Below, piece by piece: positions 1,146 to 3,192 of a DNA stretch of 12,663 nt (positions are counted from its first letter, which is position 1; the number at the start of each line of letters is the position of its first letter). Source of the stretch: a virus (Duplodnaviria > Heunggongvirae > Uroviricota > Caudoviricetes). The notes below the pieces were generated by a model, which made no database searches, had not been told where the DNA came from, and saw nothing but the letters and a program-made list of their open reading frames with translations. Location: the IMG/VR virus record IMGVR_UViG_2740892369_000024, positions 1 to 12,663 of that record. The stretch is one strand, 5' to 3'. The position numbers were made by a program, and so were the translations under genes.

Positions 1146-1174
1146 TTGACTCGAAAGGTAACTCTTGTTACCTT
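1146..1174 (+). promoter_or_regulatory. Candidate dicB-operon promoter with an embedded operator (GGTAAC-N4-GTTACC)
   Basis: TTGACT at 1146-1151, a 17-bp spacer and TACCTT at 1169-1174 as a weak -10. The 16-bp palindrome GGTAAC-TCTT-GTTACC (1157-1172) fills the spacer and carries the same half-sites as the two copies in the immunity intergenic region. Confidence 0.45.
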
Positions 1175-1355
1175 AACAACATACCAACCCACCCCGCCCC
1201 ACAGAACGCAGGGAAATACTTCGAGTTACCCGGCAGTGGTCAGGGGTTAAGTAGCCAGCCCGAGGCGTAAGAACATGACGGCAGGGTTCAACTTTAATAA
1301 CTATGCAGCAGGTTTTTGTTCCGCTACCCCGGCGTTAAGGGGAAATGAGGTCAGC

Positions 1356-1511
1356 ATGGATACTATCGATCTTGGCAACAGCGAATCTCTGGTATGTGGC
1401 GTGTTCCCCAACCAGGACGGTACGTTCACCGCGATGACGTATACCAGAAGCAAAACGTTTAAAACCGAAAATGGTGCCCGTCGCTGGCTGGAAAGAAACT
1501 CAGGTGAGTGA
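1356..1511 (+). CDS. ydfA: Small prophage protein YdfA-like (51 aa), first gene of the dicB-type operon
   Basis: ATG at 1356 is preceded by GAGG 7-10 nt upstream. Product MDTIDLGNSESLVCGVFPNQDGTFTAMTYTRSKTFKTENGARRWLERNSGE matches the length and, from memory, the sequence of Qin YdfA. The track ORF extends upstream to 1275 but that start lacks a comparable RBS. Confidence 0.7.
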   Translation: MDTIDLGNSESLVCGVFPNQDGTFTAMTYTRSKTFKTENGARRWLERNSGE

Positions 1512-1512
1512 T

Positions 1513-1641
1513 ATGGATTTCAACACAATCATGGAAAAGGCTTACGAAGAATACTTCGAAGGCCTTGCCGAAGGCGAAGAAGCCCTCAGCTTCAGTGAGT
1601 TTAAACAGGCGCTTTCCAGTTCGGCAAAATCTAACGGCTGA
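1513..1641 (+). CDS. ydfB: Small acidic protein YdfB-like (42 aa); not in the supplied ORF track
   Basis: ATG at 1513 lies 1 nt after the ydfA stop, with AGGTGA upstream. Translation is MDFNTIMEKAYEEYFEGLAEGEEALSFSEFKQALSSSAKSNG with stop TGA at 1639-1641. It is below the track's size cutoff, but the coding-like codon use and the tight ydfA/ydfB/ydfC spacing support it. Confidence 0.6.
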   Translation: MDFNTIMEKAYEEYFEGLAEGEEALSFSEFKQALSSSAKSNG

Positions 1642-1670
1642 TAAGCGAAACAGCACCGCGAGGAATCAGT

Positions 1671-1889
1671 ATGCAGAAACGAGAACCCGTCATCATCGCG
1701 CCAGACTATACCGATGATGAACTTTATGAGTGGATGCACCAGAAAATTAAGGCTGCGCAGGACCTGAAATGGGCCAATGAAGCCAGGGCTAAGCAGGCTG
1801 AAAATCTGTCCGCTCTGGAGCAGGATATCACCAGGCTGGAAAAAGCAGCGGCATTAAGCATTGCCAGAATGATTACATACCCGCGTTAA
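1671..1889 (+). CDS. ydfC: Small prophage protein YdfC-like (72 aa)
   Basis: ATG at 1671 with GAGGA 6 nt upstream. Product MQKREPVIIAPDYTDDELYEWMHQKIKAAQDLKWANEARAKQAENLSALEQDITRLEKAAALSIARMITYPR; size and order match Qin ydfC. Confidence 0.75.
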   Translation: MQKREPVIIAPDYTDDELYEWMHQKIKAAQDLKWANEARAKQAENLSALEQDITRLEKAAALSIARMITYPR

Positions 1890-1911
1890 TAGCTAACCAA
1901 CGAGGCTAATA

Positions 1912-2286
1912 ATGGAATTTAAAGATTTACCAATGCCATTCCAGGAAATGGCAGCGAATGTGGTTCGCTCTCAACTGGCGACTCTTGACCTGAGTACCGT
2001 AGAAAAAGAAACCATCGACAATATATCTGGTAACGTACGCCGAGCCTTTATCGGGCTGTACGAAGAGAAGCAGCTCTCTGATAACCAGGATTTACATGAA
2101 AAATACTTTCTGGAATTAATGGACATCATTAATAAAGGATTTGGCTTGTTAATGAAAAAGAAAGGGATTCGAATAGCTCCCCTTGAAAATCATTTTACAG
2201 CAAGCAGTATTAATTCCTGTGATTTAAAGCATCACACATCCGATGGGAAAGTTGAATCAAACAACAAAATATCAATTAATCATTAA
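1912..2286 (+). CDS. Hypothetical 124-aa protein located between ydfC and DicF
   Basis: ATG at 1912 with GAGG 6 nt upstream. The 5' half has E. coli-like composition and the 3' half (about 2100-2286) is markedly AT-rich and rich in Lys/Asn/Ile/Ser. I recognise no domain. Confidence 0.5.
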   Translation: MEFKDLPMPFQEMAANVVRSQLATLDLSTVEKETIDNISGNVRRAFIGLYEEKQLSDNQDLHEKYFLELMDIINKGFGLLMKKKGIRIAPLENHFTASSINSCDLKHHTSDGKVESNNKISINH

Positions 2287-2591
2287 TTTATTCACAGGTG
2301 AGGTAGAGTGCGTGCGCCGGACACGGGTGAGCATCCGGCACTGACAGTTTACTGAAAGGATATTTCCCTGAAAAGTCAGACCATAACGCGAAAGCGCACG
2401 GCGAGGTAGCTGGTTCATAGATAGCCTGTCGTTAAATTTTCGTCGACCGTGCGCTTCCGGTTGTGGCAATCCGCGAAATGGCGCGGCGGTAAGTATGGCG
2501 GGGTTATTCCTTCCCCAGTTGAGGACACCGGGTTGTCAGGTTGACCATACGCTTAAGTGACAACCCCGCTGCAACGCCCTCTGTTATCAAT

Positions 2592-2649
2592 TTTCTGGTG
2601 ACGTTTGGCGGTATCAGTTTTACTCCGTGACTGCTCTGCCGCCCTTTTT
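2592..2649 (+). ncRNA. dicF: DicF small RNA (Hfq-dependent antisense inhibitor of ftsZ translation) with its intrinsic terminator
   Basis: The 53 nt at 2592-2644, TTTCTGGTGACGTTTGGCGGTATCAGTTTTACTCCGTGACTGCTCTGCCGCCC, match the DicF sequence as I recall it, followed by TTTTT at 2645-2649. Position between ydfC and dicB is as in the Qin dicB operon. The 5' end is expected to arise by processing, not from a promoter. Confidence 0.8.
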
Positions 2650-2818
2650 AAAGTGAATTTTGTGATGTGGTGAATGCGGCTGAGCGCACGCGGAACAGTT
2701 AAAACCAAAAACAGTGTTATGGGTGGATTCTCTTTATCCGGCGTTAATTGTTAACTGGTTAACGTCACCTGGAGGCACCAGGCACTGCATCACAAAATTC
2801 ATTGTTGAGGACGCGATA

Positions 2819-3007
2819 ATGGAAACGTTATTACCAAACGTTAATACGTCTGAAGGTTGTTTTGATATTGGTGTTCTGCTCAGTAACCGGGAGTTTACTG
2901 AAGATGCCATTAATATGAGGAAATATGAGCCTTATCTGCTCAATGATAATTCCATACTTTCCCGAATTGCTCTTCTTGAACTTGGTATTTTCGGAGAACG
3001 TCAATGA
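2819..3007 (+). CDS. dicB: Cell division inhibitor DicB homolog (62 aa)
   Basis: ATG at 2819. Product METLLPNVNTSEGCFDIGVLLSNREFTEDAINMRKYEPYLLNDNSILSRIALLELGIFGERQ. The first ~30 residues closely match the DicB I recall (METLLPNVNTSEGCFEIGV...); the C-terminal third is diverged. Confidence 0.85.
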   Translation: METLLPNVNTSEGCFDIGVLLSNREFTEDAINMRKYEPYLLNDNSILSRIALLELGIFGERQ

Positions 3008-3192
3008 CTTCAGCATTTGCACTGATGATGACGGTTTTTCTTATAACGGGTGAATCACAGAATGTGATTACCGGAATTTATGCAAGTAAAGAATCCTGCC
3101 TCCAGGCAAGAGACGAGCAAAAAATTTCTGGTGAATGCCTCCCGCTAAAAAAAGTATCGCTGTACCTGAATAACGAAACACCGGCTGGATAA
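3004..3192 (+). CDS. ydfD: YdfD-like small membrane/lysis protein (62 aa)
   Basis: ATG at 3004 overlaps the dicB stop (ATGA at 3004-3007). The product has an N-terminal hydrophobic segment (SAFALMMTVFLITG), and its position and size match Qin ydfD. Confidence 0.7.
   Translation: MTSAFALMMTVFLITGESQNVITGIYASKESCLQARDEQKISGECLPLKKVSLYLNNETPAG

Follow-up and report, generated by a model that had tools for sequence, protein, structure and literature searches.

Does the DNA between positions 1146 and 3192 of this window hold a complete dicBF operon? If it does, are its parts close enough to those of Escherichia coli K-12 for the mechanism established there to apply, and is the operon likely to be expressed? 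The window is the whole stretch of 12,663 nucleotides that was analysed, and all positions refer to it. The dicBF operon has been under study for more than 30 years. Our preferred reading, to which we give a probability of approximately 0.85, is that 1146-3192 represents the promoter-proximal part of an early-left (PL-type) operon, that of a Qin-family lambdoid prophage in EHEC O26, and that it acts in a K-12-like manner.

Over its whole length the window matches E. coli O26 strain 97-3250 (NZ_CP027599.1) with 100% identity. RefSeq annotation of that identical sequence gives ydfA, ydfB, ydfC, a 124-residue hypothetical protein, dicB and a DUF1482 gene (ydfD) at the positions reported in a preliminary description of this DNA. 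The gene order proposed there, ydfA-ydfB-ydfC-ORF-DicF-dicB-ydfD, is borne out by the ORF list, RefSeq and Rfam, with all seven elements on the + strand where they had been placed. The operon had also been called complete and tightly coupled, and so it is. There are no frameshifts, all start contexts are intact, DicF is that of K-12 and a ribosome-binding motif of GAGG or GGAG type lies 6-10 nt 5′ of every ORF. The ydfA stop codon ends at 1511 and the ydfB ATG begins at 1513, leaving a gap of 1 nt, and an ATGA at 3004-3007 is common to the dicB stop and the ydfD start. Comparison with Rfam, Pfam and K-12 matches the 2592-2644 segment to DicF and the product of 2819-3007 to DicB, and the profile E values are far from chance (6e-37 for the Pfam DicB family, 2e-27 for DUF1391 (YdfA) and 1.5e-14 for DUF1482 (YdfD)). 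Where the preliminary description needs revision is at the right-hand end. The gene set stands, the boundary at ydfD is doubtful; direct folding found no intrinsic terminator 3′ of ydfD and the + strand continues into exonuclease, xis and int genes. Each part of the operon is identified, complete and conserved, and the region is a full copy of a well-studied prophage dicBF operon, real but ordinary. Its sequence, protein annotation and biology are all public already.

The K-12 prophage Qin (ydfA-ydfB-ydfC-dicF-dicB-ydfD-ydfE, with DicA and the antirepressor Rem) shares gene order, strand and both junctions with the window. Leader and spacer are 97.7-99.4% identical and YdfA, YdfB and YdfC 94-98%. 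Apart from the divergence of DicB and YdfD, described below, there are four differences. The window carries a 383-bp insertion, with the 124-residue ORF, between ydfC and the dicF leader; its exonuclease, xis and int are intact where Qin has an IS2-disrupted ydfE and the pseudogene intQ; in place of the 135-residue DicA there is a CI-type repressor of 224/238 residues, which has an S24-like domain and whose operator also differs; and the predicted 5′UTR is longer than in Qin.

The first three genes are readily assigned. In ydfA (1356-1511, +; 51 residues, a RefSeq CDS) 48 of 51 residues are identical to K-12 YdfA and Pfam DUF1391 is matched with an E value of 2.4e-27. A longer ydfA from an in-frame ATG at 1275 (78 residues) was rejected; homology to K-12 begins at 1318 and the ribosome-binding site belongs to the ATG at 1356. 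The 42-residue ydfB (1513-1641, +) is real, as had been claimed, with 41/42 residues identical to K-12 and the RefSeq name 'protein YdfB'; its absence from an earlier ORF track is due to the length cutoff of that track. The product of ydfC (1671-1889, +; 72 residues, RefSeq 'protein YdfC') is identical to the K-12 protein at 69 positions. The 124-residue ORF (1912-2286, +) is annotated without a function. It occupies the insertion (1910-2292), an AT-rich segment (31-37% GC) at a position where K-12 has 22 bp. The protein corresponds over its full length to PHROG 6937, a family of unknown function in PHROG, and no family was assigned from Pfam, NCBIfam or PADLOC. A Pfam VLPT match (16 bits, cutoff 27) was set aside as chance. 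Homologues come from Escherichia or Salmonella and all are 'hypothetical'. The AF2 model consists of three helices and a disordered tail with mean pLDDT 62, and a Foldseek search gave no fold match in the PDB (best E value 2.9) and, in BFVD, one uncharacterised E. coli phage protein.

The sRNA gene dicF (2592-2649, +) comprises the 53-nt RNA at 2592-2644, a terminator hairpin and a T-run. Rfam RF00039 is called at 2593-2644 over the complete model (positions 1-52 of 52), scoring 76.7 bits where the gathering score is 48 (E 7e-16), and the RNA is identical to that of K-12 at all 53 nucleotides, 5′ seed and 3′ ftsZ-pairing region alike. The terminator hairpin at 2607-2643 is followed by UUUUU and folds with -15.9 kcal/mol (z -2.2). 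Synteny agrees with the assignment, dicF being embedded in a ydfABC-dicF-dicB arrangement with an RNase III-type hairpin upstream. This long hairpin in the leader (2381-2466, +; 28 pairs, -37.4 kcal/mol) is the presumed RNase III substrate; its stem differs from K-12 by a single substitution, C2399 for U, which preserves the pairing with G2449. The leader is 97.7% identical to that of K-12, and leader, dicF and spacer together 97.7-100%. [quoted passage not shown] By analogy, RNase III would be expected to cleave the hairpin in the window, and the 190-nt DicF precursor would begin at approximately 2455, in the 3′ arm. Pairing of DicF with ftsZ and other mRNAs likewise comes from K-12 (PMC10448788, PMC5069750), and among 5,425 E. 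coli genomes, 5,389 have an ftsZ leader with 99% identity or more. Counting against our preferred reading, the naive DicF/ftsZ duplex energy is no better than that of shuffles, with 50 of 500 shuffled DicF sequences equalling it. Genomes of EHEC O157:H7 and other pathogenic E. coli have multiple copies, with up to seven dicF places each (counted here; PMC5069750), and the RefSeq records examined lack a dicF annotation. Some related loci have a shortened DicF.

The 62-residue product of dicB (2819-3007, +), RefSeq WP_000449175.1 'cell division inhibition protein DicB', matches family profiles over its full length, with 125.5 bits against 27 for Pfam PF05358 (E 6.4e-37, 1-62/62) and 114.2 against 100 for NCBIfam NF049927. 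How near is it to the K-12 protein? Overall 39 of 62 residues are identical. The preliminary description had the N-terminus kept and the C-terminal third diverged; the former is correct, but because identity is 28/35 over residues 1-35 and 11/27 (41%) over residues 36-62, the diverged part is the C-terminal 44%. This low value weighs against our preferred reading. The essentials of K-12 DicB are the N-terminal approximately 14 residues, and Leu5 (PMC4967827); residues 3-15 are identical here and Leu5 is kept. Lys2 is replaced by Glu, a further point against K-12-like action; K2A, K2G and K2R were the variants tested at this position in K-12, and they are tolerated (PMC4967827). Deletion of 12-20 C-terminal residues weakens the activity of K-12 DicB, the loss of more than eight being weakening (PMC4967827), so the C-terminal region matters and it differs here. 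It nevertheless retains its length, the predicted helical pattern and the invariant Glu37, Ile46, Ser48 and Ala51. The AF2 model is a small helical bundle (pLDDT 73), too small and uncertain for a structure search.

This window-type C-terminus is not rare but one of two common DicB C-terminal classes. Of 5,426 complete E. coli genomes, 1,020 carry the allele at close to full length, O157:H7 among them. Natural chimeras combine either N-terminal variant with either C-terminal class, which suggests that the DicB halves are interchangeable. The dicB primers used for O157:H7 in PMC6915034 match the window exactly and do not match K-12, so this allele has already been treated as 'dicB' in O157:H7 work. 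In K-12 the protein exerts a MinC-dependent, ZipA-targeted division block and ManYZ-dependent phage exclusion (PMC6832061). A changed partner specificity, raised in the preliminary description, is possible as speculation and unsupported, given that the allele is common and the residues critical in K-12 are conserved. Our literature search found no experiment on the window-type C-terminus.

The ydfD homologue (DUF1482, PF07358; 3004-3192, +) encodes 62 residues and scores 54 bits against 25 in Pfam (E 1.5e-14). Only 27 of 63 positions (43%) are identical to K-12 YdfD, again counting against our preferred reading. The hydrophobic N-terminus (MTSAFALMMTVFLITGE...) is kept, and Cys32 and Cys45 align with cysteines of the K-12 protein, for which the domain layout, IspG binding and lysis of dividing cells have been described (PMC8835842).

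Is the DicB/YdfD pair then functionally distinct, with the K-12 mechanism transferring only in part? Such a DicB would still belong to the DicB family but would have a different or additional partner (e.g. not ZipA or ManYZ), and such a YdfD would differ in target or potency. DNA identity to K-12 drops to 55-61% between dicB codon 36 and the ydfD end, with flanks of 94-100%, the DicB C-terminal classes are discrete, and the weakening of K-12 DicB by C-terminal deletions beyond eight residues (PMC4967827) is in keeping with a functional difference. The C-terminal type of dicB is also fully linked to the ydfD type in IMG/VR loci (85 K-K, 79 W-W, 0 discordant), although these are the best 80 matches per query, many of them near-identical, and the survey is biased. 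IMG/VR was used since a scan of one genome per species gave seven dicB loci, too few for statistics. The 4-nt overlap alone predicts linkage through physical proximity. In the C-terminal part the length, the predicted helices and 11 of 27 residues are kept, Glu37, Ile46, Ser48 and Ala51 among them, and the N-terminal stretch on which MinC-dependent activity relies is conserved. On balance a distinct pair appears unlikely. We are similarly doubtful that dicB codon 36 to the ydfD end forms a two-state 'specificity cassette', exchanged only as a functionally matched unit. If it did, the DicB C-terminus could set the membrane or septal partner, or protection against the cognate YdfD, and the window-type pair would behave unlike the K-12 pair.

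Upstream of the operon lies a regulatory region. A Cro-type regulator gene (102-317, -; Pfam P22_Cro, E 2.9e-16; RefSeq 'Cro/CI family transcriptional regulator') is divergent from the gene for a CI/LexA-type prophage repressor (367-1083, +), which has a helix-turn-helix (HTH_3, 3.8e-17) and an S24 peptidase-like domain (Peptidase_S24, 1.1e-16) and probably starts at the ATG at 409. Two imperfect copies of the palindrome found in the operon promoter (see below), putative operators, lie in the divergent region (346-361 and 394-409). An intrinsic terminator hairpin with a T-run follows the repressor gene (1087-1116, +; -15.1 kcal/mol, z -3.8, none of 200 shuffles as stable). An Rfam match to Trp_leader (1023-1116; 26.5 bits, cutoff 41) overlaps this terminator and was treated as chance; STnc100 gives another weak Rfam match in the window.

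The predicted operon promoter (1146-1174, +), read from the sequence, has TTGACT at -35 (1146-1151), a 17-nt spacer and TACCTT at -10 (1169-1174), with a perfect operator palindrome, GGTAACtcttGTTACC (1157-1172), inside it. The motif GGTAAC-N4-GTTACC occurs four times in the window with up to two mismatches, a count reached by none of 200 shuffles. The K-12 promoter dicBp is alike, with TTGACC, 17 nt containing the DicA operator, and TAATCT. A consensus scan reported no + strand terminator. It also missed the operon promoter, because the -10 hexamer is weak and matches at just three of six positions; both the miss and the weak hexamer count against our preferred reading. The terminator hairpins were established by direct folding and the promoter placed from the layout and the operator.

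The repressor resembles lambda CI (3bdn, E 3.4e-14), and the alignment retains the 'QAG' cleavage site and the lysine ('EQAGYW' for lambda 'VQAGMF', 'TLKKV' for 'TFKKL'). The catalytic serine (lambda Ser149, LexA Ser119) is Ala in the window (codon GCG, 817-819), another observation that weighs against our preferred reading. The segment is 'GDAM' compared with 'GNSM' in lambda and 'G[DE]SM' in almost all more distant homologues, and Ala occupies the nucleophile position in 19/19 near-identical repressors of IMG/VR loci. With the nucleophile replaced, the repressor should not be classed as self-cleaving. A literature search on non-cleavable S24 prophage repressors gave nothing directly relevant.

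Could the operon be a silent relic, intact in sequence and never meaningfully expressed, held by a non-self-cleaving repressor in a prophage that is a recombinant patchwork? The alanine fits this proposal, as do the joining of the module to differing late regions and chromosomal sites among O26 strains and the failure of mitomycin C to induce K-12 dicBp (PMC10448788). Derepression in K-12 is nonetheless spontaneous, Rem-dependent and stress-dependent despite a non-cleavable repressor (PMC10448788), and rem is found in the same prophage of strain 97-3250. None of the reading frames or ribosome-binding sites is damaged, conservation of the noncoding processing region is approximately 98-100%, and DicF is reportedly expressed from EHEC prophage copies, according to work cited in PMC10448788. 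We judge a silent relic very unlikely.

Under our preferred reading the adjacent CI-type repressor would bind GGTAAC-N4-GTTACC between -35 and -10 in the lysogen and keep the operon off. Derepression would yield one polycistronic RNA of ydfA, ydfB, ydfC, the 124-residue ORF, a 300-nt structured leader, dicF, dicB and ydfD, probably running on into exonuclease-xis-int. As in K-12, RNase III would cut the leader hairpin and RNase E trim the product to the 53-nt DicF ending at its own terminator, which would pair with the ftsZ ribosome-binding region and other mRNAs. Read-through transcripts would supply DicB and, via the ATGA coupling, YdfD. On the K-12 model DicB would bind MinC and bring it to the Z ring via ZipA, blocking division, and would also block ManYZ-dependent phage DNA entry; YdfD would inhibit IspG and lyse dividing cells. 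For this mechanism we rely on published work (PMC10448788, PMC5069750, PMC6832061, PMC8835842), from which we infer expression, RNA processing and protein activities in the O26 strain, notably those of its DicB/YdfD allele pair.

Downstream, the 823-residue exonuclease (3288-5759, +; Pfam Rv2179c-like 3′-5′ exonuclease domain, E 5.8e-68) is the intact form of the IS2-disrupted K-12 pseudogene ydfE, with 94% DNA identity up to the IS2 junction; it lies on the same strand and is probably co-transcribed with the dicBF operon. Excisionase (5821-6090, +) and integrase (6059-7177, +) genes, from RefSeq, end the early-left arm. The prophage ends near 7338, where identity between the window and other strains ceases.

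The same dicB-ydfD allele occurs in lambdoid prophages of EHEC O157:H7 (CP-933/Sp series) and in other pathogenic E. coli, with 99.2% DNA identity in O157:H7 and O104:H4 genomes. The window, from an O26 strain, belongs to this dicBF set with essentially no difference. As a discovery the locus carries little weight; public EHEC genomes already contain precisely this sequence, its protein genes are annotated there, and Rfam has a family for DicF. It does serve as a reminder that dicF goes unannotated in the RefSeq records examined, and that nearly all functional work concerns the K-12 allele when the other DicB/YdfD pair is in a fifth of complete E. coli genomes, main EHEC serotypes included. 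Small leads on how such toxic modules are controlled and diversify come from the repressor, predicted to be non-cleavable, and from the shortened DicF of related loci.

Temperate phages (Tritos, mEp460_ev081, the vB_Eco 'R' series and PPompW) match parts of the operon with 93.8-96.5% DNA identity, and dicB and DicF are annotated in some of these Escherichia phage records. Since functional phages carry dicF and dicB, the operon belongs to live phage early regions (see also PMC10448788). Coverage of the 2.2-kb query stays below 80% in every phage record, and it is genomes and IMG/VR contigs, not the isolated phages, that combine the 124-residue ORF with the window repressor. The lambda PL operon with kil is comparable in being a CI-controlled early-left operon that ends in xis-int and includes a small host division inhibitor. 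It differs in that we saw no sequence relation to Kil, that the annotation from promoter to ydfA lacks an N-type antiterminator gene, and that the division block would here rely on an sRNA and a MinC activator.

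The window is identical over all 12,663 bases to a segment of the Escherichia coli strain 97-3250 chromosome (NZ_CP027599.1, 3,289,370-3,302,032), and several further human EHEC isolates match it at 100% over the full length. Across the 2.2-kb operon stretch at least 17 complete genomes are 100% identical, one of them labelled O26:H11. RefSeq places all six protein genes of the operon exactly where the preliminary description had put them, namely ydfA, encoding a DUF1391 protein (1356-1511), ydfB (1513-1641), ydfC (1671-1889), a 124-residue ORF annotated as a hypothetical protein (1912-2286), dicB (2819-3007) and ydfD, encoding a DUF1482 protein (3004-3192). 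A ribosome-binding-type motif, GAGG or GGAG, lies 6-10 nt 5′ of each ORF, and inspection of the sequence bears out the coupled junctions, with a gap of 1 nt between ydfA and ydfB and an ATGA shared by dicB and ydfD. Rfam detects the small RNA DicF at 2593-2644, scoring 76.7 bits where the gathering threshold is 48, with all 53 nt equal to the K-12 RNA. It is the sole operon element without a RefSeq annotation in this genome record; the RefSeq/PGAP records of these genomes likewise carry no feature under dicF, whereas the K-12 record has it annotated. The operon is thus complete and its elements correctly identified. It may extend past 3192, since no intrinsic terminator was found after ydfD and the same strand carries on into the exonuclease, xis and int genes.

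Comparison with the cryptic prophage Qin of K-12 MG1655, which the preliminary description had proposed as a check, gives a dicF match of 100% and a dicB product similar to K-12 DicB. At the level of DNA the window is a mosaic relative to Qin. The ydfA-ydfB-ydfC block is 94-98% identical, with 48/51, 41/42 and 69/72 residues conserved in the respective proteins. Window positions 1910-2292, which include the 124-residue ORF, stand in place of 22 bp in K-12. Identity is 97.7% in the 299-nt leader, 100% in dicF and 99.4% in the dicF-dicB spacer, then 87.7% over dicB codons 1-35, 54.9% over codons 36-62 and 61.4% in ydfD, and 94.3% in the exonuclease gene as far as the K-12 IS2 junction. On these values conservation within the operon is highest in the noncoding RNA-processing region, and the second half of dicB together with ydfD is a short hypervariable cassette. 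The only relatedness to K-12 found upstream of position 1318 is a weak match in the repressor gene (68% over 105 bp), so the immunity region differs from that of K-12.

The insertion carrying the 124-residue ORF is AT-rich (31-37% GC). Of 5,426 complete E. coli genomes, 672 carry the ORF region at close to its full length; the protein family is restricted to Escherichia and Salmonella prophages. Library, model and fold searches gave no function. The first 55 or so residues form a conserved helical module, seen also in Stx2a phages and fused elsewhere to at least three unrelated C-termini, in forms of 109, 122 and 133 residues.

Window DicB scores above both the Pfam (125.5 bits against a cutoff of 27) and NCBIfam (114.2 against 100) thresholds. 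It shares 28 of the first 35 residues with K-12 DicB and 11 of the 27 at positions 36-62. A family search reveals two discrete C-terminal classes, the window type ending in YEPYLLNDNSILSRIALLELGIFGERQ and the K-12 type in QERELLNKICIVSMLARLRLMPKGCAQ. Glu37, Ile46, Ser48 and Ala51 are invariant in both, and natural chimeras combine either variant of residues 16-26 with either C-terminus. Mutagenesis of K-12 DicB found the first 14 or so residues and Leu5 to be critical, the identity of residue 2 not to be, and the last eight residues to be dispensable, with C-terminal deletions of 12-20 residues weakening the protein (PMC4967827). Window DicB retains residues 3-15, including Leu5, and differs from the K-12 protein where the larger deletions reduce activity. 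Close to full-length copies of the window dicB-ydfD DNA occur in 1,020 of the 5,426 genomes, and 596 records reach 99% or above, O157:H7 and O104:H4 among them; published O157:H7 dicB primers (PMC6915034) match the ends of the window gene exactly and do not match K-12. System, sequence and allele are all already known; the allele is common, already named DicB and probably active.

Window YdfD matches DUF1482 (E 1.5e-14). Its identity to the lysis protein of K-12 is only 43%, but the N-terminus is still hydrophobic and the two conserved cysteines are retained. K-12 YdfD is reported to bind IspG, both halves of the protein being needed (PMC8835842). Linkage was surveyed in 167 dicB loci, a sample skewed to near-identical sequences so that the counts are descriptive: 85 pair a K-12-type dicB C-terminus with a K-12-type ydfD, 79 are window type for both, three have no ydfD and none is discordant. 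In this survey ydfB, ydfC, the 124-residue ORF and the type of repressor combine freely, and nine loci have all seven elements arranged as in the window. Separately, in window 2924-3192 and the surveyed loci L007-L173, the recombination breakpoints lie within dicB, close to codon 35, and not between dicB and ydfD.

A hairpin of 28 pairs at 2381-2466 carries one substitution relative to K-12 within its stem, with pairing preserved, and the expected start of the 190-nt RNase III product (position 2455 or thereabouts) lies in its 3′ arm; the dicF hairpin and U-run are intact. DicF occurs in 3,969 of the 5,426 genomes, at up to seven places per genome. Twenty surveyed loci have no near-canonical DicF, five carrying a diverged form (59-62 bits) and 15 none by Rfam. 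Six of these 15 (L007, L027, L028, L033, L040 and L052) have a shortened DicF of approximately 34 nt, TTTTCTGGTGATTCGGCGGAAACGGATATCCGCCCTTTTT, some 230 nt upstream of dicB, which Rfam does not call. This mini-DicF retains the 5′ single-stranded seed and the terminator hairpin and has lost the internal loop, which in K-12 pairs with ftsZ. Three of these loci (L007, L028 and L040) were checked and proved collinear with the window operon. We also note a full-length, sub-threshold match to STnc100 (RF02076; 34.2 bits against 47, E 1e-4) at 2642-2851, covering the dicF-dicB spacer and the 5′ end of dicB, which suggests that this Salmonella sRNA candidate represents a dicB-type 5′ UTR.

A terminator hairpin (1087-1116) lies directly 3′ of the repressor gene, followed by a predicted promoter at 1146-1174 (TTGACT, 17-nt spacer, TACCTT) that encloses the perfect palindrome GGTAACtcttGTTACC, the same layout as K-12 dicBp around the DicA operator. 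Two imperfect copies of the palindrome occupy the divergent region between cro and the repressor gene; no shuffle out of 200 produced that many matches. The repressor (367-1083) is of the CI/LexA type, with a helix-turn-helix and an S24-fold domain. In an alignment with lambda CI, the Ala-Gly site and catalytic lysine are conserved, but alanine takes the place of the serine nucleophile; its codon is GCG at 817-819, one base off TCG. Alanine is common to close relatives at 98%, 89% and 70% identity and present in 19 of 19 near-identical repressors from IMG/VR loci. Sister clusters that are 88% and 66% identical retain serine, and so do nearly all of some 38 more distant homologues. LexA S119A is the analogue, and by this analogy the repressor should not cleave itself, so the operon would probably not be directly RecA-inducible. 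In strain 97-3250 a rem gene lies within the same prophage. With the annotated start at ATG 367 an operator-like palindrome (394-409) falls in the coding region. Since the distant homologues are 215-224 residues long and the K-12 DicA alignment begins at the Met codon at position 409, translation probably starts at this ATG, immediately beside that palindrome.

In 97-3250 the operon module forms the right arm of a prophage of approximately 48 kb, whose left end coincides with the K-12 Qin site (ydfJ). The gene order agrees with that of Qin (pinQ, tfaQ, lysis genes, ydfT/U, rem, hokD, relBE, flxA, ydfW), but there is a full annotated tail, head and terminase set that K-12 Qin does not have. In 97-3250 (L004) the immunity-dicB-exo-xis-int arm is joined to these Qin-type late genes, with an ISEsa1 fragment near the junction, whereas in the O26:H11 strain FWSEC0001 (L175) the same arm has a different, IS66-riddled late region and adjoins potC. 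The module thus moves between prophage backbones, and the differing junctions imply exchange between prophages or prophage-mediated rearrangement. The prophage ends at approximately 7338, and 7338-12663 belongs to the cargo-bearing end of an adjacent degraded prophage, with a partial tail-fibre assembly gene and the type III effector genes espM2 (7967-8557, minus strand), espW (9466-10524, plus strand) and three to four of nleG/DUF1076. Past the nleG/espW cargo IS600 lies just outside the window, and the degraded prophage has another ydfC farther on. Upstream of the window, in the same prophage as the operon, is a gene pair annotated as 'beta family protein' and 'sce7726 family protein' (L004 44106-45741). 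In both O26 strains this possible accessory or defence module sits between the replication region and hokD/ydfW.
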